Assembly: GCA_963762075.1 (NCBI GenBank) | Contig: CAVXJC010000006.1 | Location: forward strand, 33,788 to 97,787 | Source of the DNA: an uncultured Actinomycetes bacterium | GTDB lineage: Bacteria; Actinomycetota; UBA4738; HRBIN12 | Length of the DNA: 64,000 bases | Direction: 5' to 3' | In this document: positions 1 through 51,982 of the stretch, one piece after another | Position numbering within the stretch: position 1 is the stretch's first letter | Layout of the letters: each line of letters begins with the position of its first letter | Notes under the pieces: model-generated | Database searches by the model: none | Seen by the model: only the letters and a program-made list of their open reading frames with translations | What the model was told of the DNA's origin: nothing | Program-made: the position numbers and the translations under genes

Positions 1-763
1 CTCCCGCCTTCTCGATCAGCCGCCCGACGACTTGGTCGAGGTGCTCGTACGTTTCGCGGATCGCGTTCTCGTGACGAGGCGGATCGTCGGGTCCCGGATG
101 CTGCATGTGACGCCAGAAGAAGTGCTGGACCACATCGGACTCGGTGAAGACGACCATGAATGCTTCCCAGTCCCGCGTCTCCATAAGGTGCTCGGCGACT
201 GCAGCCCGCTTGTCGATCGACCGATGCAATCGATCCAGGCCTGCATCGATCTCCCCGGAGATCACGAAACCCGCGAGCGCCGGGTGCACGTAGTACTCGC
301 CACCGGCGACCTCCCGTATCTCGTGGCGAAGTTCGTCTGGGTGGGTGAACCCCGGCTCGTCGGCGCTCGGGCTGTCAACGCCCGAGACGAACACACCGTT
401 CACGGGCTCCGCGGGATAGCTGAGCGGCACGTTGAGAACGCCTACACGTTGGCCTTCCTCCGACAGGATGCGCCAGAACGCCTTGCCGTGGCGAAAGGAT
501 CCGTTGATGAACCGGTACTCGTAGGTCTCGGGCTTGTCCTCCGTGAACCAGTAGATGCCGTGCTTCCCTGGGTTGAGGCCGGTGACCATGGTGGACCAGG
601 CGGGGCCGCTATGCCTGTTCGGAACCGAGTTCAGTGTCCCCCACGCACCGTCGGCGAGGAAACGACCGATGTTCGGCAGTCGCTCCTCGGCCACCCATTT
701 CTCGACGAGGTGCGGCGTGGCCGCGTCCAGCCCGATGATCAAGACCTTCGATGGCCCGGTCAT
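1..763 (-). CDS. AlkP-superfamily type I phosphodiesterase/nucleotide pyrophosphatase family protein, paralog 3 (partial; 3' end beyond left window edge)
   Basis: Not listed in the ORF track because no stop falls inside the window. Minus-strand translation from the ATG at 763..761 gives MTGPSKVLIIGLDAATPHLVEKW...NSVPNRHSGPAWSTMVTGLNPGKHGIYWF. Motif order matches the two upstream paralogs. The ATG overlaps the TGA of the upstream gene (ATGA). Plus ORF 32..820 is its antisense shadow: low GC3 on plus, high GC3 on minus. Confidence 0.6.
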   Translation of the reverse strand, partial: MTGPSKVLIIGLDAATPHLVEKWVAEERLPNIGRFLADGAWGTLNSVPNRHSGPAWSTMVTGLNPGKHGIYWFTEDKPETYEYRFINGSFRHGKAFWRILSEEGQRVGVLNVPLSYPAEPVNGVFVSGVDSPSADEPGFTHPDELRHEIREVAGGEYYVHPALAGFVISGEIDAGLDRLHRSIDKRAAVAEHLMETRDWEAFMVVFTESDVVQHFFWRHMQHPGPDDPPRHENAIRETYEHLDQVVGRLIEKAG

Positions 764-2406
764 ACGTACCCCAGATCCCTCAAGTGTTCCGTCATCTGTT
801 CCTCTTCCTCCTGTGTGTAGGCCTCGTCTTCCGATCCATCGACGACCCGTGTTCCCGTGCGGCGGGGGTACCTGGCGGCGAACTCGGGCTCGAAGGCCTC
901 CGTGAGCACGCTTCCGTCCATGTCGTCCGGTAGTTCGAGGCCCAGCGCCCAGACGATGGTCGCCGGGACGTCGAGCAGGTGCGCTCTCCCCAGATCGTTC
1001 GCTTGCCGCACGGACCCGCCGTTCATGACGAGGATCCCGTCCGGACGATGGCTCGCACTGGAACGCTCTCGGCGACGCGTCGTGATCGTGGAGAGGCTCC
1101 GCTTGCCCCCCGCGTGTCCCGCTTCGCGTGACTCGTTCAACTCGAGGACGACGTCGGGGGCCGCCTCGGTGTGGATCCCGGAGTAGAGGTCCTCGCGACG
1201 ATGCGCCGCGCGGATGACAGGCTCGCCGGTGACGGGGTCTGTGAACTCCTTCGCCGCGTCGATCACCTGCTGGCGGATGGCCTCGAACTGGGCAACCGGG
1301 ACCGAGCCCAGCCGCTCGCGACCCGCCAGGTTGACGTTGACCCCCAGAACGTGATGGTCGATCGCGACGGCATACGCCCGGGATCTGGACCACTCGATCG
1401 AGCGCTCGTTCGCCTGGATCCGTTGCGCAGAGCTTCGTACAGCTTTCGGAGCGTGCTGCCACAGCCAATACTTCTTCGGGAGCACGTCCTTGCCCCACTC
1501 GAGGGCAGCTGCAGCGGGTCGGCGCCAAGGACGGCTCCCGGCCGCGACCTGCAGACCGAGCTCTTCGAGCCAGGCGTTCGCGTTGAACCTCAGCGGTGAC
1601 CGAGGACCAGTGCCGTGGTCCGACATCACGATCACGAGCCCGGGGTCGTCCACGGCTTCCAGCAGCTTTCCGAGCGACTCGTCCGCCCGTTCGTAGAAGT
1701 GATCGAGGAGCGTTCCGTCGCCTACCGGATAGGCCTCGAAGCCAGGTGCCGTCGGATCCGAGTATCTCCAGAACTTGTGAGCGACCCAGTCCGTGATGCT
1801 GTTGACATAACAGAAGAGATCGAACTCGTTCTCTCGGAGCATCTGCACGAGTGTCTCGGTCGAGCGCTCGAGGTAATGCTCGAAATTGTCGATCTGCGCT
1901 TCGACGCTGGCCACCATGCTCTTCAACGGAGCGAGCTTGACCATCGGGGGGAGGCCTTCACCGACCTCTTGCGGCATGGAGAAGTTCGTCTTGGGATCAG
2001 GGGTCGGGAAACCGGAGACCATGATCCCATTGACCGGCCACGGCGGATACGACATCGGTACACGAAAGGCGATCACTCTCAGGTCATTGCGAGAGGCGTG
2101 ATCGAAGATCGTTCTCCCCCGATACGCCCATGAGCCCATGAGTTCCGACCCGAGCGCCCCCCGCGTCATCGAACGGAAGTGGAAGACGCCGTGTTTGCCG
2201 GGGTTGACCCCCGTCATGAACGAAACCCATGCCGGCGCCGATAGTGGGGGGACCGTCGAGCGAAGACTCGCCCTCGTGCCCGTTGCCAGGAGGCCGGCCA
2301 GCGTGGGAAGCCGGCCTCGCTTCAACAGCGGATCGATGACATCGAACGTCGCACCATCGAGGCCGATGCACATCACCTTGGGGAAGGGGGGTTTCTCCTG
2401 TGCCAT
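760..2406 (-). CDS. AlkP-superfamily type I phosphodiesterase/nucleotide pyrophosphatase family protein, paralog 2
   Basis: Trimmed from ORF 760..2559 to the internal ATG (MAQEKPPFPKVMCIGLDGATFD). GLDGATFD, NPGKHG and MSDHG motifs of the AP/PF01663-like family are present. C-terminus ...LRDLGYV mirrors the upstream paralog (...LRALGYI). Confidence 0.8.
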   Translation of the reverse strand: MAQEKPPFPKVMCIGLDGATFDVIDPLLKRGRLPTLAGLLATGTRASLRSTVPPLSAPAWVSFMTGVNPGKHGVFHFRSMTRGALGSELMGSWAYRGRTIFDHASRNDLRVIAFRVPMSYPPWPVNGIMVSGFPTPDPKTNFSMPQEVGEGLPPMVKLAPLKSMVASVEAQIDNFEHYLERSTETLVQMLRENEFDLFCYVNSITDWVAHKFWRYSDPTAPGFEAYPVGDGTLLDHFYERADESLGKLLEAVDDPGLVIVMSDHGTGPRSPLRFNANAWLEELGLQVAAGSRPWRRPAAAALEWGKDVLPKKYWLWQHAPKAVRSSAQRIQANERSIEWSRSRAYAVAIDHHVLGVNVNLAGRERLGSVPVAQFEAIRQQVIDAAKEFTDPVTGEPVIRAAHRREDLYSGIHTEAAPDVVLELNESREAGHAGGKRSLSTITTRRRERSSASHRPDGILVMNGGSVRQANDLGRAHLLDVPATIVWALGLELPDDMDGSVLTEAFEPEFAARYPRRTGTRVVDGSEDEAYTQEEEEQMTEHLRDLGYV

Positions 2407-2414
2407 CCTGATTC

Positions 2415-4028
2415 CTATATGTAACCGAGGGCGCGCAGACGCTCCTCGATCTCCGCCGCCTCCTGGTCTGTATACGAGACCGATTGGTCGAGACCGTCCG
2501 GTCCGCCGGCGGTGTGAGAGATCGACCTTGACGCGTAGGGTTCGGCAAGCGCGTCCCACAGAACCCGCCCGTCCATGTCTTCGGGGATGGGTTCCCCAGC
2601 GAGGTGCAGGATGGTGGGTGCCAGATCCTGGAGGGCCGCTCCTTCGATCCGGCGTGCCCCGGCGAACTGAGGTCCTGACATCATCAACACGCCCAGGGGT
2701 CGATGCGCTCCGGACAGTCCGTGCATGAACCCCTTCGCGGACTGACGCGACAGCGCCCGCCCGAACCGGCCTTCATAACTGAGACCACCGACCGGTTCGT
2801 CGTAACGCCAGTCGATCTGGAGATCCGGCGCCTGATCGCTGTATGGCCCCGAGTAGATCTGCTTCGGCGTCCAGACTTGGTCGACCACCTGGCGCCCCGT
2901 CTCCGCATCCACCAACTCCGACAAGACCTCACGCAGCTCCTCCACGAGAGGCTCGTATTCCTCGGGCGACACCGTCCCATGCGGATCGCGGCCTTGAAGG
3001 TTGATCCACACACAGCTACGAGTGTTGTCGCCGAATGCGCGCGTGTTCTCCCAGTCGAGACCACCGAAGCGGACCTGGTAGCCGAACCTCCGATAGAGGC
3101 TGGGGAGACGACGCTTCAGGAACCCGCGCGCGTTCGGTCCGAGTCGCTTCGCCAGCCGGAGCGTCCGCCATCTCGCCGCCTCACCAGACGATGCTCCGCT
3201 GCGAAGATATCCGAGCTGGGCGAGGACGTCGTTCACGTGTTCGGCTGCAGGCTGTCGCCACCCCATGCCGTGGTCCGACATCACGATCACGCCGCAGTCC
3301 GGCCCCGCCTGTTCGAGGAACCTCGCAAGGGTGCTGTCCGCGAATTCGTAGACGGGTCGGAGACGCTCCTGCAAGGAGGCCTCCGGATCCCATACATGAT
3401 GTGCGGCCTGGTCGGTGGACTTGACCATGTACATGAACACGTCCCACTCGCGCGTCGCCATCAGGTGCAGGGCCGCGCGAACCCGGCTCTCCTCGGCCGC
3501 GAGCGCCGACTGGACCACACGCTCGTGGTGTCCCCCAGCTGCGTGATGGGCAACCGACGCATGCAAGATGTAGGGGCCGCACTCGCGTTCGAGCTCATCG
3601 ATCAGCCCATCCGGATGGCTGAACGACATGCTGCGCGTCGAAGGAGCGTCGAATCCCGCGACGAGCACACCGTTGACGTGCTCCGCAGGGTAGGTCATCG
3701 GGACGTTGACGATCGCGAGATCGTGACCAGCGTCCGATAGGAGCCGCCAAAGGCTCACGCCATGGCGATCCGCCGCAGTCACGAAGCGCACCTGCCCGGG
3801 GTCGTCCCCCTGCTCGGCGAACCAGAACACCCCGTGCTTCCCGGGGTTCTTTCCGGTCATGAACGTCGTCCACGCTGGGGCCGTGTTCATGTTCGGCACC
3901 GAACTCAGGTACCCCCACGCACCTTCATCGAGCAGGCGCGCGAAGGCCGGGAGCCGACCTTGCTCGGCCCACGGCAGAAGAAGGTCGAACGTCGCGCCAT
4001 CCAGCCCGAGGATCATCAGGCGATTCAT
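2415..4028 (-). CDS. AlkP-superfamily type I phosphodiesterase/nucleotide pyrophosphatase family protein, paralog 1
   Basis: 537-aa ORF. MNRLMILGLDGATFD...TGKNPGKHGVFWF...VIVMSDHGMG motifs are present. Start overlaps the Wzz-like stop (ATGA). Confidence 0.85.
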   Translation of the reverse strand: MNRLMILGLDGATFDLLLPWAEQGRLPAFARLLDEGAWGYLSSVPNMNTAPAWTTFMTGKNPGKHGVFWFAEQGDDPGQVRFVTAADRHGVSLWRLLSDAGHDLAIVNVPMTYPAEHVNGVLVAGFDAPSTRSMSFSHPDGLIDELERECGPYILHASVAHHAAGGHHERVVQSALAAEESRVRAALHLMATREWDVFMYMVKSTDQAAHHVWDPEASLQERLRPVYEFADSTLARFLEQAGPDCGVIVMSDHGMGWRQPAAEHVNDVLAQLGYLRSGASSGEAARWRTLRLAKRLGPNARGFLKRRLPSLYRRFGYQVRFGGLDWENTRAFGDNTRSCVWINLQGRDPHGTVSPEEYEPLVEELREVLSELVDAETGRQVVDQVWTPKQIYSGPYSDQAPDLQIDWRYDEPVGGLSYEGRFGRALSRQSAKGFMHGLSGAHRPLGVLMMSGPQFAGARRIEGAALQDLAPTILHLAGEPIPEDMDGRVLWDALAEPYASRSISHTAGGPDGLDQSVSYTDQEAAEIEERLRALGYI

Positions 4029-4996
4029 GGTGTCCGCACGCCCCTGACGTCAGCCCGACCTGTAAAGAGTTCGGTTTGCTCGTTCCGCGAACGCGATGAC
4101 TGCGCCTCGGCGCGACGTCGACGGGACCACCGTTCGATCCCGAGGATCGTGAGGAAACTCACGATGAGCCCGGCGAGAACGGCGAGGCCGACCGTGGAGA
4201 TGATGCGTGCGCGAACGGTATCGTCGGGGGCGCTCGGCGGGGAGATCATGATCGACGCTGTCCGCCGCTCCAAATATCGCTGGGTCGCGTCTTCGACCAA
4301 GGTTTGGATCGCGTCTCGGTTGCTGACAAGGACGCGGATCTGAGAGCTCGTGAGCGAATGCGCTGCTCGGAGGCGCTTCAGGCGTTCACGCAACTCCTGG
4401 ATCTCTGCCCTGTCGGCGATCGTAAAGGGCGCGGCCTGAAGACTGACCACACGCTCCCAGTACAAAGCGATCGAGCGCGCGTATTCACGACGATCTGCGC
4501 CCAAGGCGACGAGCTCCTGGGTCAGGTCCTGCACGTTCGACTCGACGTCGTCCTCCAGCCGCTGCACCTGCTCCAGGGCCAGCTCGTTCGATCGGTCGAT
4601 CAGGCTGGTGGATGCCTCCTCCACCGCCCTCTCGGCAACCGACCCAATCGATGCGGTCGCCGTGACGAGGTACACGTCTTCGCTGCGCTGCTGCACCGCC
4701 GCAACGGAATGGATCGCGGACGCCTGTGGTCCAAGGGTCGAACGAACCTGTTCCCCGAGGGCCTTGTTCGCGTACGCCCCCAGCTGGATCGCGATCGCGG
4801 AGACCTGAGTGGTCTTGGTGGCTACGGGGTCGCTGGCCGGGATGAGCACCTCAGCCTGGCTCACGTATTCGGAGGGAGCGGATAGCGCCAGAGGCAAGGC
4901 AACCCCCGCCGACACGACGACTGCAGCGAGTAGCGCCCACCACCTTCTCCGCACCAAGTCGAACACGCTCGAATTCTCGGACCGGCTCGATTTCAC
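4025..4996 (-). CDS. polysaccharide co-polymerase / Wzz-like chain-length determinant protein
   Basis: N-terminal TM helix followed by a YVSQAEVLI Wzz-type motif. Long coiled-coil middle. Pro-rich SPPSAPDD segment plus C-terminal TM helix. ATGA overlaps with both neighbours. Confidence 0.6.
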   Translation of the reverse strand: MKSSRSENSSVFDLVRRRWWALLAAVVVSAGVALPLALSAPSEYVSQAEVLIPASDPVATKTTQVSAIAIQLGAYANKALGEQVRSTLGPQASAIHSVAAVQQRSEDVYLVTATASIGSVAERAVEEASTSLIDRSNELALEQVQRLEDDVESNVQDLTQELVALGADRREYARSIALYWERVVSLQAAPFTIADRAEIQELRERLKRLRAAHSLTSSQIRVLVSNRDAIQTLVEDATQRYLERRTASIMISPPSAPDDTVRARIISTVGLAVLAGLIVSFLTILGIERWSRRRRAEAQSSRSRNEQTELFTGRADVRGVRTP

Positions 4997-5946
4997 GTCA
5001 CGTCGCCTACCTTTAGCCGAGTCTGCATTCGGCCGTACGTGACGGCTGCGAGCTTGACCCCTCCCAGAGCAAGGGTCTTCATGGTGTTGTTCGACCTGCT
5101 TCCTCCGTCTGGCGTCACCGCCAAGGTCGCCCGCATGCCCTCACGCAAGTAGGGCATCCTTCCGAACTCGCGGAGCTCCGCGAAGATCCCGACGTGCTCG
5201 TATACCGCGCCGATCCTTCTGTAGCGCCTGACGAGCTCCCGAATCCCCAGCTCGTGAACGTGCAGAACCGAGGCGCCGGGCACGTAGGCGATGTGGCAGC
5301 CGCTGTCGAGCAATCGTTTGGCGATACCGACATCCTCGAAGATGGCGAGCTCATCAGGGAATCGAAGTCGCCGCGCAACATCGGTGAGGAAGGCCGAGGT
5401 CACGTCAGAGAAGTGAAATGTTCGCAGGCCGAGCTCCCCTATCCGCGCCCTGCTCTTGAGCTCCGGCCGCTCGGGATAGAGATAGTCGTAGGTCGCCTGC
5501 CGTTCGGCGTTCGGGCGCGGCGCAACCTGGCGTCCATACGACGCCTGAGCTCGTCCGTCTGCCAGCGGCTCCACCAAGGCCTCGAGCCACGAGTCGCTCG
5601 TGGGGTGTGCGTCCGACGACAAGAACGCTACGACCGGCGTGGTCGCGAGGTCGACACCGTGGTTGCGCGTCCGGGCGTGACCGAACGAACGCGGATGCAC
5701 GGCCTCCCAATGATCGGCAGCCGCCCGAAGGGCACGGCTCGATCTCGATGTGGGGTCGGGACTCGAATCGATGACGATGATCGACAGGCCCGCTCCGTAC
5801 CGCTGAGATCGAACGATGTCCGCGGTCTCGATCTCCCAGTCTCCGGGGTTCTGGGTCAGGAGAACAACGCTCACATCAGGCCACTCCTGAACCGGCCTCT
5901 GCGCCTGGTTCCCGTCGCCGGCGGCCACCACCGCATCAAGCGACAC
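4993..5946 (-). CDS. family 2 glycosyltransferase (GT-A fold)
   Basis: VSVVLLTQNPG...IIVIDSSPD GT2 signature about 20 aa from the N-terminus. First gene of a five-gene minus-strand operon. Confidence 0.8.
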   Translation of the reverse strand: MSLDAVVAAGDGNQAQRPVQEWPDVSVVLLTQNPGDWEIETADIVRSQRYGAGLSIIVIDSSPDPTSRSSRALRAAADHWEAVHPRSFGHARTRNHGVDLATTPVVAFLSSDAHPTSDSWLEALVEPLADGRAQASYGRQVAPRPNAERQATYDYLYPERPELKSRARIGELGLRTFHFSDVTSAFLTDVARRLRFPDELAIFEDVGIAKRLLDSGCHIAYVPGASVLHVHELGIRELVRRYRRIGAVYEHVGIFAELREFGRMPYLREGMRATLAVTPDGGSRSNNTMKTLALGGVKLAAVTYGRMQTRLKVGDVT

Positions 5947-6244
5947 GATGGCTCCGCAGTACGATCGGGAGGGTTTGGGGGAAGATCTGGGGGTCGATCA
6001 CTTGGAACTGCCGTGTCAGCTCATCCGGCCCGAGACGTTGCGGCGCGCAACTGAGTCGGGAACGTATTCGCGTTTCGAAAGACCCCGTGGACGAGATGTG
6101 CACATAACCTCCAGTGTCCAAGGCGTCCACTGCTCGGGCCTTTGACCGACGCCTTGCCAAGTGGCGGAGACGATAGAGAGGGGTTGCCTGCGTCAAATCC
6201 GTCGCCTCCTGTAACTTGAGATGGTCAGGGCTACCCACGACCGC

Positions 6245-6974
6245 CTACGTAGGTATCTGTATGCGTCCGTCCGTCTGGGTCGCTCCGTCGAACAGATGGA
6301 TGGTGCCGTTCTTCAGCGCGACAGCTTCGAGCTTCGAGTGAACTTCCAGTTTGCGAAGGATGTTCTGGACGTGGGTTTCCACGGTCCGTTCGCTGATCAC
6401 TAACTCGTTCGCGATCGCGGCGTTTCGCATCCCCTTTGCGAGGAGCGCGAGGATCTCGCGCTCACGCTCGGTCAATCTAGCCGTCCTGCGGACGATCTCC
6501 TGCTTCGCTCGCCGCTTCCCGGAAACCCTCTGGATGAGCTTCGGAAGGCTCTGGAAATCGATCAGCTGCTCTCCGGTGGCCGCGACTTCGATCAGCTCGA
6601 AGAGCCGTTTGACCCGCTCGGCCTTTGGGACGATTGCGTCGGCGCCAGCTTCGATCGCCTCGAGGAGATGGTCATCACTGATGTTCCCGCTCATGACCAT
6701 CACCATGGTCGAAGGAGAAAGCGCCTTGATACGACGCGTCGCCTCAGTTGCGCTCGACCGCGAAGCAGCTTGCACGCCCATGAGGACCACGTGAGGCCGA
6801 TGCTTCTCGCAGATCTCAACGGCTTGACTCGGATCTTCGACCGGGTCGGCGATCAGACGGATGCCATCGGACAGCCTCATGACCGTGGCCAGGGCATCCG
6901 AGAGGAGTCCGCTTTCGTCGCAGATCAGGAGCGAGATCTTCTTGTCGTTCATGGCTTCGGTGGCCGAGCTCATG
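6245..6974 (-). CDS. LuxR/NarL-family response regulator with degenerate receiver (phospho-acceptor Asp replaced by Gly)
   Basis: Receiver-like N-terminus (LLICDES...HVVLMGVQ...VMVMSGN...AIVPK) plus C-terminal LuxR HTH (LTEREREILALLAKGMRNAAIANELVISERTVETHV). Start set at MSSATEAMNDKK, with a GGGAGG RBS about 8 nt upstream. Confidence 0.8.
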
Positions 6975-7207
6975 GCCCAGCCTCCCGAGGGTGTTCTCGT
7001 CGGCATGGGGCCTGCCAGTTCAGCTCGGGTCGCCATCCATGGGGGAAGGGGAACCTCATGCAGAAAGCTTACCCCAGGGTAGGTAAAAAGTCCTAGGCGA
7101 TTTTCCGTACTCGTAGTTAGTAGGTGAGAGAGGCAGACCCCTCAAGCGGAGGGTGCCACCCTCGACCATTCCGGGCACCGCCTCTGAGGCCAGCTCCGCG
7201 TGGCACC

Positions 7208-7678
7208 ATGGAGTCGATGCGGCGGACCATCCCCCCCCTTTGCGCGGCCCTCCTACTCACGGCCTGCACCGTTGGCGAGACCCACACAGGTGGCCCACGC
7301 ATGGGAACGGTGACGTTCGCCGGGGGGGCAGCGCTCGACGTGCGCATCGCCGACGACGACGAGGAGCGTCAGCGCGGGCTGATGGGGGTCACGTCGCTCG
7401 CAGCCGACGAAGGCATGGCGTTCGAATTCAGCGAGCCCACCGATTCCTCGTTCTGGATGAGGAACACGCTGATCCCCTTGTCGATCGCGTTCATCGGCGA
7501 GGACGACCGCGTCGTCACGGTCCTCGAGATGGAGCCGTGCGCCGCGGAGCCGTGCCCCACGTATTCCCCAGCCGGCCCATACGTGCTCGCGGTCGAAGCG
7601 AACGCAGGGTGGTTCGATGAACACGGCATCGACGAAGGCGATCGCATGGAGGGATACGTTGGCACAGCGCCCCGGTGA
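7208..7678 (+). CDS. DUF192 (COG1430) family protein, probable lipoprotein
   Basis: MESMRRTIPPLCAALLLTAC lipobox-like signal. GLMGV...GMAFEF...FWMRNTLIPLSIAF DUF192 pattern. Confidence 0.7.
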   Translation: MESMRRTIPPLCAALLLTACTVGETHTGGPRMGTVTFAGGAALDVRIADDDEERQRGLMGVTSLAADEGMAFEFSEPTDSSFWMRNTLIPLSIAFIGEDDRVVTVLEMEPCAAEPCPTYSPAGPYVLAVEANAGWFDEHGIDEGDRMEGYVGTAPR

Positions 7679-7982
7679 CGACTGCATGCTCTGCGACGCT
7701 GAACGCGTGACCGACTGGTTGCACGAAGACGATGACTGCTGGGTCGCCGAGTGCCTGGTGTGCCGGACTCCGATGGTGGTCTGGCGCACGCACGGGCTTC
7801 CGGACCCGAAGCACGAGGCGCGGTTGCTCGCACACCTCGAGCGGGTGGCCGTCGAGCGTTACGGGGACGAGGGCTATTGGGTCGACCCGGAGCGCCGGCG
7901 GATCCCCGACCACTGGCACGCGCACGCGCGGCCCGCCGGTGGCTTCTTCGATCCCGCGAGCGACCTCTACGGCAAGTACTGA
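7617..7982 (+). CDS. hypothetical Cys-rich protein (two CxxC pairs, putative zinc ribbon)
   Basis: With the ATG at 7617 the protein has CMLC...CWVAECLVC. The alternative ATG at 7686 (MLCDAE) removes the first Cys. Overlaps the 3' end of the DUF192 gene in another frame, so the start is uncertain. Confidence 0.4.
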   Translation: MNTASTKAIAWRDTLAQRPGDDCMLCDAERVTDWLHEDDDCWVAECLVCRTPMVVWRTHGLPDPKHEARLLAHLERVAVERYGDEGYWVDPERRRIPDHWHAHARPAGGFFDPASDLYGKY

Positions 7983-11083: not shown

Positions 11084-11665
11084 ATGGCGGGTATCGCTCG
11101 CGTCGTCGGGGTGATCGCGATGGCGCTCGTCGGGTGCGCGAGTAGCCCCCCGATGGCCGGCGCGCCGGGTTCGAGCGCTCCGCCTGCGCCGGTCGCGCTG
11201 CCGGTCTCCGCATTGCCCCGCATGACGAGTGACGCATCAACCGTCGATGTCGATCGGCTGGCGAACGAGGTCGTGCACCCCGACGAGCTACGCGCTGTGC
11301 TGGATGATGCCGGCTTCTCCACGGGCGCGCAGCGCTCGTTCGGCGCCGGCACGGGCGCGTTCTCGCGGGTGCTGTCGCGAGGTCTCGCGTTCGAGACCGA
11401 GGCCGGGGCCGCCGCCTTCGTGACGTGGTTCGGCGACAACGCGGGTGAGGAGGTCATCTCGGCCGACCGGATCTCGCCCAGCAGGGTGCCCGAGGGGGTC
11501 GTCGTGTTCCGCCACCTGCCCGACGGCTGCTGCCGCAACGACGTGCCGGTCTACCTGGCGGCCTGGCAACGCGGCCCCTCGGTGCTCTATCTGCACGTCG
11601 GCGGGCGCCGGGCGAACACGCGAGCCTTCGTGGAGCTCATCGAGTCGTACGACCGGGAGGTATGA
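11084..11665 (+). CDS. hypothetical lipoprotein
   Basis: MAGIARVVGVIAMALVGCASS signal/lipobox. Ends at a TGA that overlaps the next ATG (ATGA). Confidence 0.55.
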   Translation: MAGIARVVGVIAMALVGCASSPPMAGAPGSSAPPAPVALPVSALPRMTSDASTVDVDRLANEVVHPDELRAVLDDAGFSTGAQRSFGAGTGAFSRVLSRGLAFETEAGAAAFVTWFGDNAGEEVISADRISPSRVPEGVVVFRHLPDGCCRNDVPVYLAAWQRGPSVLYLHVGGRRANTRAFVELIESYDREV

Positions 11666-12508
11666 CGATGCTCGACCATCTCGAGACCATCGCGACCGGA
11701 CTCGATCACCCTGAAGGGGTCGCCTGGGGCCCCGATGGCCGCCTCTACGCAGGTGGGGAAGCCGGCCAGGTCTACGCGGTCGACGCCGATGGCCGCGTCG
11801 AAGAGATCGCGTCGACCGGCGGGTTCATGTACGGCGTGACGCTCGACGGCGACGGCAACGTCTACGCCTGCGACTTCGGCCGCGCCGAGATCGCGCTCGT
11901 GACGCCCGGCGGTTCCGTCTCGTCCTACTCGACAGGAACGACCGAGCACCGGATCCGGGTTCCGAACTTCACGGCCTTCGACGACCAGGGGAACCTCTTC
12001 TTGACGGACTCGGGCACGTGGGGCGCCGACGACGGGCTCCTGTTCAAGGTATCGGCCGGCCGGGACCGAGGTATGGTCCACCGCGGTGCCGGGATTCCCG
12101 AACGGGTGCTGTCTCTCGACCGCCGGAGACGCCCTGCTCGTGGTCGAGTCGAGCCGGCGTCGGGTCGTGAGCGTGCCGATCCGATCCGACGGCTCGGCGG
12201 GCGCGCCCGAGCCGGTGGCCGACCTCACCGGGTCACAGCCCGATGGCATCGCCCTCGCCGCCGACGGCACGATGTTCGTCGGGTGCTACCGGCCCGATCG
12301 GGTCTGGCGCATCCCACCCGGCGGCAGGCCGGAGGTTCTGCTCGACGATCCCGACGGGGTGTCGCTGAACCAACCGGCGAACGTCGCGTTCATGGGACCC
12401 GAGCTCGACGGTCTGGCGATCTCGAGCCTCGGTGGATGGAGCATCGTCGCCCTCGATGTCGGAGTCGCCGGACTCCCCCTGCGGTACCCGAAGCCTGCCC
12501 AGACATGA
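11662..12508 (+). pseudogene. SMP-30/gluconolactonase/LRE-family beta-propeller protein, frameshifted
   Basis: N-terminal half sits in the frame of ORF 11662 (TGLDHPEGVAWGPDGRLYAGG...NLFLTDSG). C-terminal half sits in the frame of ORF 12086 (GFPNGCCLSTAGDALLVVES...). A +1 shift occurs at a GCCGGG run near 12085-12095. Confidence 0.6.
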
Positions 12509-12526
12509 TCGGCCGGGATGCGCAGG

Positions 12527-12550
12527 GCCCGCTCTTCAGGCGGGCGGTTT
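12527..12550 (+). terminator. GC hairpin (GCCCGC-7nt-GCGGGC) followed by GGTTTGGGG; terminator-like, between convergent SMP-30 and zwf genes
   Basis: Perfect 6-bp inverted repeat seen in sequence immediately after the plus-gene stop. Confidence 0.35.
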
Positions 12551-13915
12551 GGGGTCGTGCCATCCTCCGTCGCCTGCGATCAGATCGTCGGCTTCGCCCG
12601 GGCCCCACGAACCCGGCTCGTAGGCGACGACCGGCGTCGCTCCGTCGAGGATCGGATCGACGACCCGCCACGAGGCCTCCACGATGTCCTGGCGTGAGAA
12701 CAGCTCGGCATCGCCTTCGAGCGCGTCGGTGAGCAGCCGCTCGTAGGCTTGCATGCCCTCGCCGGGTTGGTGGTGGGCGACGAGGTCGACGTCGTCGCCG
12801 ACCATGTCATCTCCGGGCACCTTCGTCCGGGCGGCGAGGGTGATCCCCACGTCGGGCCCGAGCCGGAAGACGACGTGGTTCGGGTGACCCGCTCGCGGTT
12901 CGCCGAACACGTCGCGCGGTGGTCGCTTCAGCTCCACGAGCACCTCCGTCGCCGTGAGCGGCAACCGTTTCCCCGCCCTGATGTAGAAGGGCACTCCCGC
13001 CCATCGCCAGCTCTCGACTTCGAGGCGCAGGGCGACATACGTCTCGGTCTGCGAACCCGTCGCTACTCCGTCGGCATCTCGATAGCCCGCGAACTGCCCG
13101 CGCACGACATCGCTGGGCTCAAGGGGGCGGATCGCTTCCAGCAACCTGACACGTTCTCCCAGGAAGACCTCACGGTCCGATCCGGAGGGAGGGTCCATCG
13201 CGACCAGCGCCATGACCTGCAGCAGGTGGTTCTGCACCACGTCGCGGATTGCACCGACGTTGTCGTAGAAGCGTTCCCGGCCACCCAAGCCGAAGCTCTC
13301 CGCCATGGTGATCTGCACGCTGTCGACGTAATGGCGGTTCCAGAATGGCTCGAGGAACGTGTTCGCGAACCGGAAATAGACGAGGTTCTGCACCGGTTCC
13401 TTGCCGAGGAAGTGATCGATGCGGAAGATCGATCGCTCCGGGAACACGGCGGTGACTGCCTCGTTCAATCGCTGCGCCGAGGCGAGGTCGCGACCGAACG
13501 GCTTCTCGACCACGACGCTTCCATCGGCGCATCCGACGCGCGCGAGGTGTTGGATCACGATCTCGAACATCGATGGCGGGATCGCGAGGTAGTGCAGAGG
13601 CCTTCGATGGTCTCCCAGGGCAGCCTTCAACCGGTCGAACGTGTCGGGATCGGTGTAGTCGCCGTCGACGTAGCGAAGTCTCGATGCGAGATGGCCGAAC
13701 GACGCCTCGTCGAAGTCTGGCCTGCCTTCGAGGGCGGCGCGCATGTGCGTCTGGAACTTCTCGAGGTCCCAGCCCGACCGCGCGACGCCGACGATCGGAA
13801 CGTCGAGGTTCCCGCGGCGGACCATCGCCTGGAGGGCGGGGATGATCTTCTGCTCCGCGAGGTCACCCGTGATGCCGAAGATCACGAGCGCGTCGGATCG
13901 CCGCGCGGTCACCAC
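12536..13915 (-). CDS. zwf: glucose-6-phosphate dehydrogenase
   Basis: ALVIFGITGDLA NADP motif, RIDHFLGKE active-site motif, and further G6PD blocks. GTG start chosen 1 nt after the upstream TGA. Upstream in-frame residues are Arg/Ser-rich overlap with the preceding gene. Confidence 0.9.
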   Translation of the reverse strand: MVTARRSDALVIFGITGDLAEQKIIPALQAMVRRGNLDVPIVGVARSGWDLEKFQTHMRAALEGRPDFDEASFGHLASRLRYVDGDYTDPDTFDRLKAALGDHRRPLHYLAIPPSMFEIVIQHLARVGCADGSVVVEKPFGRDLASAQRLNEAVTAVFPERSIFRIDHFLGKEPVQNLVYFRFANTFLEPFWNRHYVDSVQITMAESFGLGGRERFYDNVGAIRDVVQNHLLQVMALVAMDPPSGSDREVFLGERVRLLEAIRPLEPSDVVRGQFAGYRDADGVATGSQTETYVALRLEVESWRWAGVPFYIRAGKRLPLTATEVLVELKRPPRDVFGEPRAGHPNHVVFRLGPDVGITLAARTKVPGDDMVGDDVDLVAHHQPGEGMQAYERLLTDALEGDAELFSRQDIVEASWRVVDPILDGATPVVAYEPGSWGPGEADDLIAGDGGWHDPKPPA

Positions 13916-22611: not shown

Positions 22612-22896
22612 ATGCCGCGATATCTCGTTCAGCGAAACTTCGGCAATATCGACGATGAGCATCTTGAGCTGCGTGCGCGCAAGAGCAAGTTGCTCACCGA
22701 GACCGACTTCACCCAGATCACGTGGGAGCACAGCCACGTCGTCGGAAGCCCCGACGGGGCCGTCCGTACCTTCTGTATCTACTTCGCACCGGATGAAGCT
22801 ATCGTGCGTGATCACGCCGACGCGATGGGCGGACACCAGATAGAAGTGATCTACGAGATCGGCGGAGACGTGGCGCCATCCGACTTCACGAACTAG
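22612..22896 (+). CDS. DUF4242 domain protein
   Basis: MPRYLVQRNF...TFCIYFAPDEAIVRDHADAMGG...IEVIYEI matches the DUF4242 (PF14026) pattern. GGGAG RBS. Confidence 0.7.
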   Translation: MPRYLVQRNFGNIDDEHLELRARKSKLLTETDFTQITWEHSHVVGSPDGAVRTFCIYFAPDEAIVRDHADAMGGHQIEVIYEIGGDVAPSDFTN

Positions 22897-25039
22897 CGGG
22901 GTCCACTCGCGCCGCGCGCCGAAGGGTCTCCTCGTCCATCTGCGAGTGCTCGTATCGCGACCAAGCGACGCTGCGACGAAGACCGATCGAGCGGCGCCGG
23001 CCCTCCTCGTCCTTCGGGATCAGCGAGAGCGCCTCCTCGAATAGGGCCACCGCCTCGGCGTTCGCCCAGGCGCGCTCGGCACGCTCGGCCGCCGAGAGCA
23101 GGTAGCTCACTGCTCGCTGCGGGTCGCCTCCTTCCTTCCAGTGGTGGGCGAGGATTGCGGCGATGCTGTCGGCTTCCGGCACCGTCTGCTCGAAGTACTG
23201 GGCCACCGCCTGGTGCCGGTCGCGCCGGTCGCTCTTCGTGAGCGTCGAGTACGCGACGTCACGGATCAGTATGTGGCGGAACGCGTACTCGCGGTCGCCC
23301 TCGACCTTCGAGGAGGGCTCCGTCCGGATGAGGTCGCGCGATTCCAGCGAGTCCAATGCGTCGTCCAGCGCATCGCCGCTGGTGCCGAGTCCGCCCAGCA
23401 CACCATGCCAGAAGACCTTGCCCACCACGGCCGCGTCGTTCAGCACCGATCTCTCGTGCCTGGGTAGGGCATCGAGTCGCGCCGCGATCATCGCCTTCAC
23501 CGTGGTGGGGAGGACCGCGCGGTCACCGCCCTCAGCGACCCACGACGACAGCTCCTCGATGAACAGCGGGTTCCCGCCCGCCGTCGCCTCGATCTGCGCC
23601 GCGACCTCGACAGCCAGCGTTGGCGTGAGCTGCGCCGCCAGGGCTTGTGATTCCTCGGTCCCCAACGGCTCGAGACGGATCGTGAACGAGGAGAGCTGGC
23701 CGCCGCCCCACATCGGCCGGATGTCGAGCAGCTGGGGTCGGGCGAGGCACAGGAGCAGGATCGGCGTGTCCTTCATCCGGGCCGCCAGCGAGTCGATCAG
23801 GTCGAGCATGCTGGGGTGGGCCCAGTGGATGTCGTCGAACACGAGGAGCGTGGGCTGATCGTGCGCGAGCGCCTCCACGAACCGGCGGGCGGCGTCGAAG
23901 ACCTCGCGTCGATCCTCGGCGGAGGCCTCGGCTGTCCCTACGAAGACGGCCAGCCGTTGCGAGACTTCAGGGTCATCAACCCCTAGCCCTGCGAGGGAGC
24001 GCTCCAGCTTCTCGGTTATCACTGCATCGACGTCGAGCTCGAAGACCCCCGCGACCTCCTTCACGAGCTGCCCGAAGGCCTCGTAGCCGACGCTCTGGGT
24101 GTAGGGAAGCTCTCGCACCAGCAGGGATCGGCCGCCGGTGCGCTCCATGTGGTTCGCCAGCTCCGCCGCGATGCGGCTCTTGCCGATGCCCGGCTCGCCG
24201 AGGATCGTGACCAGGTGCGCCCGCCGCCCGGTCACCACGCGTTGCCAAACATCGTCGAGCAGGCCGAGCTCGCTCCCGCGACCGAGGAACGGCGTCTCGC
24301 TGGGGCGCTGCCCGAAGTCGGTGAGGGGCTCGACGGCGAGCCAGGTGGGGACCGGGTCTCGCTTGTTCTTGGCGATGACGGGCTCGACGTTCTCGTAACG
24401 GATCGATCGGTGCGTGGCGCGGTGGGTCTCCTCGCCCACGAGCACGCGTCCCGCCGGCGCAGCGGATTGGAGCCGCGACGCGGTGTTCACCATGTCGCCC
24501 ACCACGAGCGCTGTACTCTCCGACGTGGGATCGAGCTCTACGACTGCCTCGCCGGTGTTCACCCCCACGCGCACCCTGAGCTCGGCATCGGGCAGTTCTT
24601 CGTTCAGAGCGGCGACGGCGACCGGGATCTGGAGGGCGGCGCGAACGGCGCGCTCGGCGTCGTCACCCCGGGCCACGGGGGCGCCGAACACGGCCATCAC
24701 GGCGTCGCCGATAAACTTCTCGACGGTGCCGCCGAAGCGCTCGATCTCCACGCTCACGCGCCGGTAGTAGTGCTCGAGCAGCTCGCGCACGTCCTCCGCG
24801 TCGGTGGACTCCGACCGCGAGGTGTAGCCCACAAGGTCGGCGAAGACCACCGAGATAACCTTCCGCTGTCGCTCCGCGTCCTCGGACCTCGCCCGGGTTC
24901 CGCATGCCGGGCAGAACCGTGCGTCCTCGGGGCCGTTCGCTCCGCAATGGCTGCAAACCCATCCCACACCCGCCCCACACGTCGCACAGAAACGAGACTC
25001 ATCCGGGTTCGCTGCGCCGCAACTCGTGCACACCCTCAC
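22886..25039 (-). CDS. zinc-ribbon / class III adenylyl-guanylyl cyclase / AAA+ ATPase / TPR-like multidomain signalling protein
   Basis: N-terminal double CxxC zinc ribbon (CTSCG...CATCG...CSHCG...CPACG). Cyclase homology domain (VVFADLVGYT...FIGDAVMAVFG...NTASRLQ). P-loop GEPGIGKSR. C-terminal helical repeats. Start codon uncertain: no ATG, so GTG at 25039 chosen; TTG at 25090 is the alternative. Confidence 0.85.
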   Translation of the reverse strand: MRVCTSCGAANPDESRFCATCGAGVGWVCSHCGANGPEDARFCPACGTRARSEDAERQRKVISVVFADLVGYTSRSESTDAEDVRELLEHYYRRVSVEIERFGGTVEKFIGDAVMAVFGAPVARGDDAERAVRAALQIPVAVAALNEELPDAELRVRVGVNTGEAVVELDPTSESTALVVGDMVNTASRLQSAAPAGRVLVGEETHRATHRSIRYENVEPVIAKNKRDPVPTWLAVEPLTDFGQRPSETPFLGRGSELGLLDDVWQRVVTGRRAHLVTILGEPGIGKSRIAAELANHMERTGGRSLLVRELPYTQSVGYEAFGQLVKEVAGVFELDVDAVITEKLERSLAGLGVDDPEVSQRLAVFVGTAEASAEDRREVFDAARRFVEALAHDQPTLLVFDDIHWAHPSMLDLIDSLAARMKDTPILLLCLARPQLLDIRPMWGGGQLSSFTIRLEPLGTEESQALAAQLTPTLAVEVAAQIEATAGGNPLFIEELSSWVAEGGDRAVLPTTVKAMIAARLDALPRHERSVLNDAAVVGKVFWHGVLGGLGTSGDALDDALDSLESRDLIRTEPSSKVEGDREYAFRHILIRDVAYSTLTKSDRRDRHQAVAQYFEQTVPEADSIAAILAHHWKEGGDPQRAVSYLLSAAERAERAWANAEAVALFEEALSLIPKDEEGRRRSIGLRRSVAWSRYEHSQMDEETLRRAARVDPASS

Positions 25040-25112
25040 GCGAAAAGGATATCCGGGTGAGCCCGGCGACCAGCGGCCCGATAGCAGCAACCAGGGGACC
25101 GAACTGCGGAGG

Positions 25113-25629: not shown

Positions 25630-27099
25630 TCACGCCCTTCGGCCGCGTAAGCGAGCGCGAACAGCGTCTAAGACGACGCGATCGTCGGCGTCGATCCCGA
25701 GAAGCGTCGTGGCCGTCACGTAGACAACGACGGTCGCCGCAGTGCCAACCAGGAGCGATGCGAATCCGCCTCCCATCAGGGCGCGGATCGAGAGGGCGAC
25801 GCCGCCCGCGATCACGCCCGCGGCCAGGCCTTTCACGAGACCTAGGTTGAAGGCAAACATCTTCAGGAACACCCATACCTGCGTCATGCGTGCGATGGTC
25901 AACAGGGCGATCGTCGACGCCCAAGCGATCGCCGCGCCGGACATCCCCAATCGAGGAATCAGCACGATGTTCAGTCCGACGTTCAACACCACCGCGGCGA
26001 GGTAGTTCGCCATCTGAACGACGGGCCGCCCGGACATCGTGAGCATGTATCCGCAGGGGCCGCTCGCGGCACTGAACAGCCAGGCGACGGTCATGATCTG
26101 CGTTACCACGACGCCCGATTCGAACGCCGGCCCGAAGATGGCGAGCAGCTCACGCGGGAAAACCAGGAGGACGACGAACCCGGGCAGTGACAGCCGGACG
26201 ACCCAGCTCGTGATGAGGGCGAAGGTCCTCTTGAGGAGCTCGTACCGGCCTCGCCGATAGAGGTCGGCGATCCGCGGCGCGAACGAGTTCGTCACCGGCG
26301 CAACGAATATGGTCGCCAACAGCGTGAGGCGCGTCGCGACCTGATACACGCCCACGTCGGCCGCGGAGCTGTAGATGCCGAGCAGGATCGTATCGGCCCA
26401 CAGCAGGCCGTTGCTGGCGATGTTCGACAGCCAGCTCGGCGCTGAGAACGTTAGGAGCTCGCGCACGTAGTAGCGAGGGCGTGCCTCGATCCGACCGACC
26501 AGGCGTTTCAACGCGATAGAGGCCAGGACGGCGGACGTCGTGTTCGTCACGACGAGGGCGATCATGACGCCCGTCAACCCCCATCCGGCCCAGATCATCG
26601 ACAGCGTGAGGACGATGCGGAAGGCCGGCTCGAACACGAGGTTGATGAGCGCGTACGGCTTCATCGTCTTGAAGCCCCGAGTCGCGCCGAGCGCCGCGTC
26701 CGTGTAGGCGGTCGCCGGCAGCGCGACCGCGACGAACCGCAGAACCGAGATCAGCCGCAGTTCGTCGTGGAACGCATGCACGGCGAGCCAGGGCGCGAGC
26801 GCAAAGAGCGCGATGCCCATGATGGCTGCGATCGCGACCGTCGTCGTGAGGCCGAGCCGGATCGTCCCACGCAGCGCAGCATCGTCGCCATCGGCCCTGT
26901 GCACGACCACGTACCGCGTCAGCGTGTCGGTGGCAGCAGCAGATGCGACGAGGCTCAGGAACGCGAGGATCGCGAACGACTGGAAATACAGACCGGCGAC
27001 ATCGGCCCCGAGCAGCCGCGCGATGACCAGCGTGATCGCGAAACGCAGCGCCTGATTGAAGAGGGCGCCGCCGAAGTTGGTGCCGCCTTGGCGCGCCAT
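25630..27099 (-). CDS. polysaccharide biosynthesis protein / Wzx-like MOP-superfamily flippase
   Basis: Twelve-plus TM helices typical of MOP/oligosaccharide flippases. Start set at MARQGGTNF (27099). The upstream in-frame acidic stretch from 27207 is the alternative. Confidence 0.7.
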   Translation of the reverse strand: MARQGGTNFGGALFNQALRFAITLVIARLLGADVAGLYFQSFAILAFLSLVASAAATDTLTRYVVVHRADGDDAALRGTIRLGLTTTVAIAAIMGIALFALAPWLAVHAFHDELRLISVLRFVAVALPATAYTDAALGATRGFKTMKPYALINLVFEPAFRIVLTLSMIWAGWGLTGVMIALVVTNTTSAVLASIALKRLVGRIEARPRYYVRELLTFSAPSWLSNIASNGLLWADTILLGIYSSAADVGVYQVATRLTLLATIFVAPVTNSFAPRIADLYRRGRYELLKRTFALITSWVVRLSLPGFVVLLVFPRELLAIFGPAFESGVVVTQIMTVAWLFSAASGPCGYMLTMSGRPVVQMANYLAAVVLNVGLNIVLIPRLGMSGAAIAWASTIALLTIARMTQVWVFLKMFAFNLGLVKGLAAGVIAGGVALSIRALMGGGFASLLVGTAATVVVYVTATTLLGIDADDRVVLDAVRARLRGRRA

Positions 27100-27296
27100 C
27101 CCCAAGACCTCTGCTCGACGACCGTCGTCGCCGAGACGATCCCCCCGCTGGTCGCCCGGCGCGCTGGCCACGGGTCCTTCGACCTCGGGGTCCTCTTTGC
27201 CCGACACGCCTCAGGCGCCGCGCTCGAACGCCGAACGATCGGCGCGGCGATGCCCTCGGCACAGGCGGTGATCGCCGAGACGGAGCCGATGGTCGC

Positions 27297-28430: not shown

Positions 28431-28830
28431 GCCGCGGCCCCGTGGTACTCGCTTATCAGCCCGCCCAGCACCTTCTGACGTCTGGTCCGCCCCATCGGAA
28501 CGGGGATCGGGAAGACGCCCACCGTGTCCCGCGGGGCCAGATCGATCCCACGGTGCGCTCGGTGCGCGTCGTAATGGCGCTCGCAGACCTGAAGCAACCT
28601 GAGCAGGTGTCTTCGCCCTAACATGACCAACTTCCGTGGGTAGGCCGCCGGGCGAAGGCGGCGAGGAGCATCCGGTCACAACGACGAAGCTTAGGCCGAC
28701 CGGCGTTTCGCTTCATCACCGCCAGCTGATGGCGAAGCACAAGGATCTCGGCCTCACGCTCGCGAGCATCGCCCTCAGGCGGGACGTGAAGGACAAGACG
28801 AAGGATGAGGTAGAGAACCGCGAGAAGCAC
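28427..28830 (-). mobile_element. IS transposase relic with internal deletion (N-terminal 70 aa and C-terminal 67 aa fragments in different frames; DDE core missing)
   Basis: N fragment MLLAVLYLILRLVLHV...EILVLRHQLAVMKRNAGRPKLRRCDRMLLAAFARR. C fragment LLRLLQVCERHYDAHRAHRGIDLAP...RRQKVLGGLISEYHGAAA. Both are hallmark ends of an actinobacterial rve-type transposase family. The fragments are juxtaposed near 28618-28630. Confidence 0.55.
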
Positions 28831-29314
28831 CGCGCGATGCTACTTCGTCGCACCTCCAGATAGCGAATCGGGAGTTTGCCACCCCTACAGTCGACGCGGA
28901 CGGCACCACCCGCGAAGTCACCCGCGACCACGACCTCATCCGCAGGGGGTGACAGCACCGCCGGAGGTGACTCAAGATGGAAATCGGGAGCCCGGCAGGA
29001 TATTTGCCTGTTTCTAGCCTCAACGGCAGCGTGAGGAGGGGAGCCGATCTGAGCCAGCCGACCATCCGACGGGCGGAGGCACACGATCCGAAGCGAGAAC
29101 ATCGCACCAAGAGCCATCGTTCGCGTGGACTTCTTGGCGTGGAGGACGGGTGTCCCCGGATCGATATCCAACGCCGCGGATCTCACCATCGAAGCCGGGA
29201 CAGTCTCGACCCGCGTCAGCGACGATGGATAGACTCGAGGCATGGAGGAGTTCAGCGTGACCGTCGGCTGAGCGGTCCCATGCTCCGTCATTTCCCCCGA
29301 CTCGAAACCCCCCG

Positions 29315-40567: not shown

Positions 40568-40576
40568 CGAGGTGCG

Positions 40577-42112: not shown

Positions 42113-42132
42113 GTGGCCTCCACGCTTCCTCT

Positions 42133-51971: not shown

Positions 51972-51982
51972 GGCATCCACGG

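Follow-up and report, generated by a model that had tools for sequence, protein, structure and literature searches.

We estimate a probability of roughly 0.55 that the gene described here encodes a phosphorylation-independent NarL/FixJ-type regulator with a pseudo-receiver, descended from a kinase-paired system, that controls both itself and the glycan operon downstream. The gene lies in the window, by which we mean the whole 64-kb stretch of DNA that was analysed. The initial annotation had proposed a phosphorylation-independent atypical regulator, and this is well supported by the Gly at the acceptor position, by the missing kinase and by the pairing of lost Asp with lost kinase in the Asp-less clades among its relatives. 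The further suggestion that the protein regulates the neighbouring operon gains only from comparative synteny (six Asp-less and two kinase-paired loci) and from a candidate operator defined post hoc, but not from the divergent geometry that it assumed. The gene and its domains are as follows.

6245..6973, minus strand: regulator coding sequence, 242 amino acids plus stop, within the open reading frame 6245-7036.
6981..6986, minus strand: Shine-Dalgarno sequence GGGAGG, 7 nt upstream of the ATG at 6973.
6578..6937, minus strand: receiver (pseudo-receiver), residues 13-132, (βα)5, from Pfam PF00072, AF2, Foldseek and dN/dS.
6308..6478, minus strand: GerE/LuxR helix-turn-helix (HTH), residues 166-222, with recognition helix RTVETHVQNILRKL, from Pfam PF00196.
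6248..6307, minus strand: C-terminal tail, residues 223-242, with pLDDT 39-67 and unconserved outside the 98% identical homolog.

Residues are numbered from the Met at 6973, which is the likely start because of the GGGAGG just upstream; in the homolog P0001 (98% identical), the gene was likewise called with 242 amino acids. The alternative start, the ATG at 7036, was rejected, as it is without a Shine-Dalgarno sequence. The span first given for the gene, 6245-6974, was thus off by one base at its end, but the gene itself is present.

Both domains scored above their Pfam cut-offs, as expected from the original description of a LuxR-type response regulator. In the 263-residue translation of the longer open reading frame, Response_reg (PF00072) matched residues 37-149 with 45.6 bits against a cut-off of 30.2 (E = 9e-12), and GerE (PF00196) was found with 74.6 bits against a cut-off of 23.5 (E = 5e-21). 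The AF2 model, calculated from an alignment of 146 sequences, had a mean pLDDT of 89.6. In it, a receiver in which five strands alternate with five helices is joined by a long linker helix to a four-helix HTH. The best sequence matches among solved structures were LiaR/VraR, NarL, DevR and DesR (E = 2e-21 to 5e-19), and Foldseek returned the same NarL-family regulators from the model at E = 1e-13, with receiver-only structures of DesR superposing at an RMSD of 1.7 Å. The AF2 model is unreliable for the activation state, in which light the inter-domain RMSD of ≈8 Å to BeF3-LiaR and RcsB, and of 14-21 Å to inactive VraR and closed NarL, should be read. No NCBIfam equivalog matched; the best reached 96 bits against a cut-off of 300, and every match fell far under its cut-off. 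The gene has the NarL/FixJ (LuxR-HTH) architecture, but it is not a functional two-component member, because the acceptor position is occupied by Gly66.

The active-site positions of the receiver map to the following codons.

6914..6919, minus strand: D19 and E20, the acidic metal-binding pair, with Glu instead of Asp as the second residue.
6776..6778, minus strand: Gly66, codon GGC, at the phospho-acceptor Asp position, placed by HMMER, MAFFT and AF2.
6689..6691, minus strand: Ser95, the conserved Thr/Ser position, from the alignments.
6623..6625, minus strand: Lys117, the conserved Lys, which is K in 121/121 sequences.

The regulator's quintet thus reads D-E-G-S-K. HMMER placed its "hvvlmGvqa" opposite "dvilmDlvm" of LiaR and "dlillDlnm" of NarL. 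When 120 homologs were aligned with MAFFT, the NarL D59 column contained Asp in 116 sequences and Gly in three, namely the query, P0001 and P0002, and a second MAFFT alignment with 95 representatives of 50%-identity clusters put Gly66 in the same column, where 19 of the 95 representatives were without Asp. In the AF2 model, Gly66 ends strand β3 (residues 62-67). The reading of the acceptor Asp as Gly (HVVLMGVQ) was therefore borne out by HMMER, by MAFFT and by the position in the model, and the comparison with NarL-type proteins and the AF2 model, which had been put forward as a check, yielded no conserved Asp at the acceptor position. A shifted Asp acceptor was also considered and rejected, because the first acidic residue past Gly66 is E77, which lies in α3. 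The CDES, VMVMSGN and AIVPK strings singled out in the initial annotation are all present, and with them D19, E20, S95 and K117 are kept. At the second acidic position, Asp was found in 117 of 121 family sequences and Glu in the query clade, while the Ser95 column held Thr in 108 and Ser in 13 of the 121. Judged from its sequence, the receiver cannot be phosphorylated at the canonical site. The four intact active-site residues out of five would also fit a recently inactivated or an otherwise-regulated receiver.

The glycine does not result from a sequencing or assembly error, since P0001 (98% identical) and P0002 (69% identical), which come from separate assemblies and sequencing runs, both have Gly as well. 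The codon is GGC both in the window and in L001, the locus of P0002, and GGC is one transition away from GAC. Comparison of the window with P0002 by the Nei-Gojobori method gave dN/dS of 0.22 for the receiver (dS ≈ 1), 0.32 for the linker and 0.09 for the HTH. The two proteins are 64% identical in the receiver and 86% in the HTH, which resembles the 52% and 74% of the canonical, kinase-paired pair P0013 and P0003. With dN/dS this low and a ratio of receiver to HTH identity like that of a canonical pair, the receiver is maintained by purifying selection, which acts on the HTH as well.

The regulator is an orphan, as none of the few genes flanking it on each side encodes a kinase. The absence of an adjacent histidine kinase, as first noted, was confirmed over the 64-kb window by Pfam, which detected no histidine kinase among 47 scanned ORFs, and by tblastn with three HisKA kinases, which yielded no kinase in the window. 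Nor did Pfam detect a Ser/Thr kinase among the same 47 ORFs. The gene context of relatives was compared at 13 loci, selected partly by the length of the available sequence, from a family of at least 3,461 members. For each protein, the acceptor residue, the kinase and the neighbouring genes are listed here.

P0003: Asp; kinase adjacent, 2-5 bp away or with an overlap; an fn3-domain gene and a small unknown gene, no glycan cluster.
P0005 and P0013: Asp; kinase adjacent; panB and menaquinone genes, no glycan cluster.
P0054: Asp; kinase-regulator fusion.
P0127 (L015): Asp; GAF-HisKA-HATPase adjacent; 177-nt gap, then two GT2 genes.
P0328 (L018): Asp; PAS-HisKA-HATPase adjacent; GT4 and Wzy_C.
P0051: Asp; no adjacent kinase; S8 peptidases.
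P0002 (L001): Gly; no kinase; WbaP-type sugar transferase 1 bp upstream.
P0275 (L007-9): Gly, quintet D-H-G-N-K; no kinase; GT2, GtrA-like and PMT.
P0142 (L010-12): Gly, quintet D-D-G-A-K; no kinase; DegT, Polysacc_synt_2 and GT4.
P0085 (L014): Asn; no kinase; three GT2 genes.
P0132 (L013): Ala, quintet G-D-A-I-D; no kinase; Wzx-type flippase and sulfotransferase.

The search for Asp-less homologs, another check proposed at the outset, thus uncovered further Gly, Asn and Ala clades among the relatives. A kinase was adjacent in none of the five Asp-less clades (query/P0002, P0275, P0142, P0085 and P0132), compared to five of the six Asp-containing groups, in which it is of the HisKA type, the sole exception being P0051; Fisher's exact test on these five clades and six groups gave P ≈ 0.013. 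At the P0002 locus, it is the WbaP-type priming sugar transferase, not a kinase, that ends 1 bp before the regulator. We considered whether phosphorylation control might persist away from the canonical Asp, either through a Ser/Thr kinase acting on the receiver or the HTH, as in RitR and DosR, or through a distant kinase that uses another residue. Such control is known in other regulators (PMC4395418, PMC5965902), and the genome was visible to us only over 64 kb. However, neither type of kinase was found among the 47 ORFs scanned, and in five clades the adjacent kinase was lost along with the Asp, which points to kinase control having been given up and not redirected. Persistence of off-site phosphorylation is highly improbable.

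Downstream of the regulator, the window contains the following features.

5947..6243, minus strand: spacer between regulator and GT2, extending to 5875 if GT2 starts at the GTG at 5874; 298 or 370 nt.
4993..5946, minus strand: family-2 glycosyltransferase (GT2), with which the presumed target operon begins, from Pfam PF00535.
4025..4996, minus strand: Wzz/PCP-like membrane protein, a sub-threshold match to Pfam Wzz (E = 0.0028).
1..4028, minus strand: three tandem alkaline-phosphatase superfamily paralogs (PF01663), at 2415-4028, 760-2559 and 2-778, from Pfam.

The regulator had been described as divergent from a GT2/Wzz/AlkP operon. Instead, it lies upstream of these genes on the same, minus strand and is co-directional with them, and its divergent neighbour is a DUF192 lipoprotein gene, as identified by Pfam. 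The contents of the operon were partly upheld: the GT2 (PF00535) and AlkP-like (PF01663) genes were found, but the Wzz profile reached only 18.4 bits against a cut-off of 25.5. That these genes form an operon is suggested by the Wzz-like gene, which overlaps both of its neighbours by 4 nt. From the GT2 to the PF01663 genes the overlaps are mostly of this length, while that of the last two genes, which varies with the start taken for 760-2559, is at most 145 nt; the fragment 2-778 runs off the start of the window. The alternative GT2 start, the GTG at 5874, agrees with the gene call on the contig of P0001. Other nearby genes include an unknown 121-aa ORF and ABC-transporter genes.

The spacer between the regulator and the GT2 gene gave no coding GC3 signal in any frame, and a 100-aa ORF within it (5936-6238, minus strand) was ruled out as a gene by its GC3 of 0.64, compared to 0.77-0.81 for its neighbours. 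There was no Rfam match above noise in the spacer, and the fold energy at 5875-6250 was no better than that of shuffled sequences (z = −0.24). A scan of 5700-7400 returned no sigma-70-like site, a scan that is of little use for a high-GC actinobacterium. The only terminator-like match in the same region, at 6721-6737, is inside the regulator ORF.

The association with glycan genes recurs among the relatives. Glycan-biosynthesis clusters adjoin the regulators of all five Asp-less clades (six loci) and of the kinase-paired P0127 and P0328; at these eight loci they comprise GT2, GT4, DegT, Polysacc_synt_2, PMT, Wzx-type flippase, sulfotransferase or Wzy_C genes, while the genes upstream of the regulator differ from locus to locus. 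The recognition helix RTVETHVQNILRKL is common to the glycan-linked clades, whereas the kinase-paired family linked to panB and men genes has QTVQTHVRNILGKL. This recurrence bears on the possibility that the regulator is a relic, either decaying or functionally unrelated, that lies beside the glycan genes incidentally (for example through co-transfer on a variable island) and regulates something else or nothing. Its own GC3 is 0.77, the regulator and glycan genes together range over 0.76-0.81 and the DUF192 gene has 0.79, compared to 0.85-0.92 for most genes further along the window. The common composition of the regulator and the glycan genes counts in favour of the preferred reading given below. 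For a relic, the lower GC3 across 1-7 kb points to a variable or acquired region. The clade is also rare, with three sequences among the 5.8 billion searched, and the C-terminal tail is unconserved. Nevertheless, the reading frame is intact and preceded by a strong Shine-Dalgarno sequence, dN/dS is 0.09-0.22 at dS ≈ 1, and the glycan neighbourhood is found at eight loci of different clades while the other neighbours vary. We consider a relic quite improbable.

The Gly clade of the window regulator comprises only the query, P0001 and P0002 in a search of 5.8 billion proteins. Beyond it, no match above 47% identity emerged when 1.8 billion cluster representatives were searched exhaustively, and scans of genome and metagenome contigs with the regulator protein returned only matches of 26-32% identity and no further member of the clade. 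The numerous relatives near 50% identity carry Asp, and several are labelled Actinomycetota by their sources; at 40-50% identity, the relatives separate cleanly by acceptor and kinase into the two sets compared above. A neighbour-joining (NJ) tree placed the query clade (100% bootstrap) as sister to the Asp-containing P0007 (78%). The P0275, P0085 and P0125 clades also group beside Asp-containing sequences in this tree, in which bootstrap was reported for the P0007 pairing only. The deep nodes have bootstrap values of ≤28%, and the number of independent losses is therefore uncertain.

The candidate operators in the window are the following.

6244..6253, unstranded: perfect 10-bp palindrome CCTACGTAGG, candidate operator, overlapping the end of the regulator gene (its final two codons and the stop).
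7079..7096, unstranded: imperfect inverted repeat GTAGGTAAAAAGTCCTAG, candidate autoregulatory operator, GTAGG-N8-CCTAC with one mismatch.

NarL-type proteins typically bind paired half-sites as dimers. CCTACGTAGG is the sole perfect copy in the 64-kb window, where three matches were found with up to one mismatch, compared to 0.4 expected, and GTAGGTAAAAAGTCCTAG is located 106 nt upstream of the regulator start, in the upstream region common to the regulator and the divergent DUF192 gene. Because the patterns were picked after the sequences had been read, all of these statistics overstate significance, including the count for the hexamer CCTACG/CGTAGG, which occurs 8 times in 2.8 kb of regulator-flanking spacers, compared to 1.3 expected from composition-matched simulations and 0.1-1.1 per kb in bulk sequence. 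Longer patterns were counted across 215 kb of non-redundant sequence. GTAGG-N8-C[CG]TAC occurs exactly three times (0.17 expected), at L007 8724, L010 883 and L018 2441, and all three copies adjoin regulator or kinase-regulator operons; copies with one mismatch are those at 7079-7096 of the window and at L002 1903. CTACGTAG was found exactly four times (0.67 expected), three times beside regulators (window 6245, L010 1608 and L015 1771) and once inside the GT2 gene of L007. CTACG-N8-CGTAG has a single exact copy (about 0 expected), 53 nt past the regulator stop in L014. Each copy in the window either carries a mismatch or sits 300-370 nt ahead of the GT2 start. The co-localisation of the motif with the regulators across clades is suggestive of a common candidate operator, although one defined post hoc.

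In our preferred reading, the ancestor would have been a kinase-paired two-component regulator adjoining genes for cell-envelope glycan biosynthesis, of which several branches would have lost both the kinase gene and the acceptor Asp while keeping the link to the glycan genes. The pseudo-receiver would then most likely serve as a constitutive dimerisation or scaffold module, allowing the HTH to bind inverted repeats without phosphorylation. Its likely targets would be the CTACG/CGTAG-based repeats at the 5′ and 3′ flanks of its own gene, through which the regulator would control its own expression and the downstream GT2/Wzz-like/AlkP-like operon, its activity being set mainly by protein abundance. 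We infer dimerisation, the DNA targets, the direction of regulation and the constitutive activity from the comparisons above.

Alternatively, the pseudo-receiver could be a sensor, in which DNA binding is switched by a protein partner or by a small molecule, for instance a second messenger or a glycan precursor. In a variant of this explanation, the regulator would pair with a canonical paralog that has the Asp, in the way that WhiI and BldM form a heterodimer. The receiver dN/dS of 0.22 and the pocket left intact by D19, E20, S95 and K117 are both consistent with a sensor, a family of kinase-paired paralogs with 47-50% identity is present in related organisms, and pseudo-receivers controlled by ligands or partners are documented in JadR1, VpsT, WhiI/BldM and Rem/MirA (PMC12632262). 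We found no ligand-binding signature in the regulator, however: it is without the VpsT motif W[FLM][TS]R and contains no Trp at all. Its only Cys residues, 18 and 55, both belong to the receiver and do not set the Asp-less clade apart, since Asp-containing relatives carry them too. Furthermore, no paralog of the regulator was found within the window. On balance, a sensor appears unlikely, and we favour the constitutive, phosphorylation-independent regulator.

Aspartate-less receivers (ALRs) make up ≈4% of receivers, and pseudo-receivers ≈6% of bacterial ones (PMC4395418, PMC12632262). Gly is the fourth commonest replacement in ALRs, at ≈11%, and no Gly-type receiver had been characterised or solved in 2015 (PMC4395418, PMC12632262); LuxR/GerE outputs are common in the class (Maule et al. 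2015, PMC4395418; Bourret et al. 2025, PMC12632262). The window protein resembles the class in being recognised by PF00072, in having a residue other than Asp at the acceptor position and in being encoded by an orphan gene. Unlike many pseudo-receivers, in which several active-site residues are lost, it is changed only at the acceptor and by the Asp-to-Glu substitution at the second acidic residue. How pseudo-receivers are activated without phosphorylation is an open question (PMC12632262). The behaviour that we favour for the window protein is documented for SecR (PMC13199381) and has been suggested for many pseudo-receivers (PMC12632262).

SecR is an RcsB-like, NarL-family atypical regulator from proteobacteria that acts on serine-cycle genes in C1 metabolism (PMC13199381). 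It has no Asp and no kinase, forms a stable dimer, was shown to bind DNA and adjoins its target genes, and its family also holds kinase-paired, Asp-containing members, implying progressive loss (PMC13199381). Similarly, the window protein is a NarL/FixJ-type regulator without acceptor Asp or cognate kinase, located beside its presumed targets. The pockets differ, in that R32 and R81 are proposed to replace the metal ion in SecR, whereas the window protein has D19/E20 and Gln68 at D+2. Membership in the SecR subfamily was ruled out, as there is no Arg at the acidic or D+2 pocket positions.

BldM, WhiI, RedZ and RamR are orphan atypical NarL-type regulators of Streptomyces that act independently of phosphorylation as homo- or heterodimers (PMC4125116, PMC12632262). 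The window protein is likewise actinobacterial, orphan and NarL-type, but BldM and RamR keep the Asp, and the targets of all four are genes for development or antibiotics rather than glycan operons. No sequence relationship to them beyond the NarL family was found with NCBIfam, in which all matches were far below the cut-offs. VpsT and CsgD share with the window protein an atypical receiver and a LuxR HTH, and they control extracellular polysaccharide genes without a kinase, although they come from a different phylum. VpsT was among the structural matches from Foldseek, with sequence similarity confined to the HTH, and CsgD was a weak NCBIfam match (61 bits against a cut-off of 250). A VpsT-type c-di-GMP regulator was ruled out by the missing W[FLM][TS]R motif. 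The canonical NarL, LiaR/VraR and DesR have the same two-domain fold, but each of them has a cognate kinase and the acceptor Asp, and their dimerisation follows phosphorylation.

JadR1 and RamR had initially been named as parallels. JadR1 is an OmpR-type protein and RamR retains the Asp, and neither family matches; SecR, BldM/WhiI and VpsT/CsgD are better parallels. A JadR1-type regulator was ruled out because the output domain in the window is GerE/LuxR and not an OmpR/PhoB winged helix. A RitR-type redox ALR, defined by a single linker Cys and an OmpR-type output, was also rejected, with Cys 18 and 55 in the receiver and a GerE output. Overall, the regulator is best filed with the known class of aspartate-less orphan NarL-type regulators.

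As a single gene, the regulator is routine, as several percent of receivers are without Asp and orphan regulators of the atypical NarL type are familiar from actinobacteria. Novelty may lie in the pattern across the lineage, seen in a small sample, of a family linked to glycan operons with repeated loss of kinase and Asp; our literature search found no specific description of glycan-linked, Asp-less NarL-type regulators. Tentatively, and at slightly less than even odds, we propose an undescribed, mostly uncultured NarL-type lineage of Actinomycetota, hard-wired to envelope glycan or glycosylation operons, in which HisKA kinase and Asp would have been lost together at least 4-5 times (to Gly, Asn or Ala) while the CTACG-based operator was kept throughout. 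If true, this would represent a replicated natural experiment in converting a two-component system to a one-component regulator, and it could lead to the first Gly-type aspartate-less receiver to be characterised. The lineage also offers a handle on how envelope polysaccharide synthesis is regulated in uncultured Actinomycetota, and it provides matched pairs, that is, close relatives differing at the acceptor, for studying the activation of pseudo-receivers. P0085 and P0076, which have Asn and Asp at this position, respectively, are 89% identical.

The regulator and the glycan genes (window 1-7036) have a GC3 of 0.76-0.81, compared with 0.85-0.92 in the neighbouring ABC-transporter genes and both clusters of NADH:quinone oxidoreductase (nuo) genes, from 8014 onward. 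This difference points to an island of distinct composition at window 1-7036, possibly one that has been acquired or is variable. The two nuo sets, between which a polyprenyl synthetase gene stands, are located as follows:

39095-47765, minus strand, one set of nuo genes
50451-62152, minus strand, another set of nuo genes

TTA leucine codons are very rare, accounting for only 5 of the 15,433 codons in the 41 genes counted, and four of the five fall in the regulator and in the second glycan locus of the window. The regions listed for them are:

6401-6403, codon 191 of the regulator
25630-27207, region listed for TTA codons
27297-28679, region listed for TTA codons
47040-47765, region listed for TTA codons

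At the leucine matching codon 191, the regulator homolog P0002 has TTG. The distribution recalls bldA-type control in Streptomyces but may be no more than an effect of the lower GC3.

The second glycan locus (window 25630-30913) encodes a Wzx-type flippase and a sulfotransferase of 532 aa, together with a protein of 460 aa that is weakly similar to HprK-related kinase. In the genes it carries, this locus resembles the surroundings of the Ala-type regulator P0132 (positions 2-7389 of locus L013); unlike P0132 in that locus, however, no regulator adjoins the second glycan locus of the window.

Among the relatives that retain the acceptor Asp, every paired kinase at the homolog loci L002, L003, L004, L015 and L018 contained a HisKA (PF00512) dimerisation domain; the usual partners of NarL-type regulators are HisKA_3 kinases. 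Two relatives, P0085 and P0076, differ at the acceptor position, which is Asn in the former (CVMNVGLG) and Asp in the latter (CVMDVLLG), despite 89% identity. They constitute a near-isogenic natural pair with which the importance of the Asp in this lineage could be probed. At about 7750-7830 of locus L014, upstream of the gene for the Asn-type regulator, a unit of ≈21 bp (CTCAATGTGATGGGACATCTG) is present in three tandem copies, within the 378-nt region that separates this gene from a divergent small HTH gene.

Downstream of the GT2 and Wzz-like genes, three paralogs of PF01663 (type I phosphodiesterase/alkaline-phosphatase superfamily) are arranged in tandem (window 1-4028, minus strand):

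2-778, minus strand, PF01663 paralog 1, incomplete, cut by the window edge
760-2559, minus strand, PF01663 paralog 2
2415-4028, minus strand, PF01663 paralog 3

An SMP-30/gluconolactonase (SGL)-like gene on the plus strand (window 11662-12732 and 12086-12508) appears to be frameshifted. In the 356-aa ORF, the SGL-type family match is confined to the first ≈115 residues, after which the sequence is Arg-rich, while a 140-aa ORF in a different frame has a GC3 of 0.84 and, by eye, resembles the C-terminal part of SGL-type proteins. Two further features of the window are:

22886-25090, minus strand, 734-aa protein with double zinc ribbons, an adenylate/guanylate cyclase domain and a STAND-type AAA ATPase domain
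33545-33626, tRNA gene
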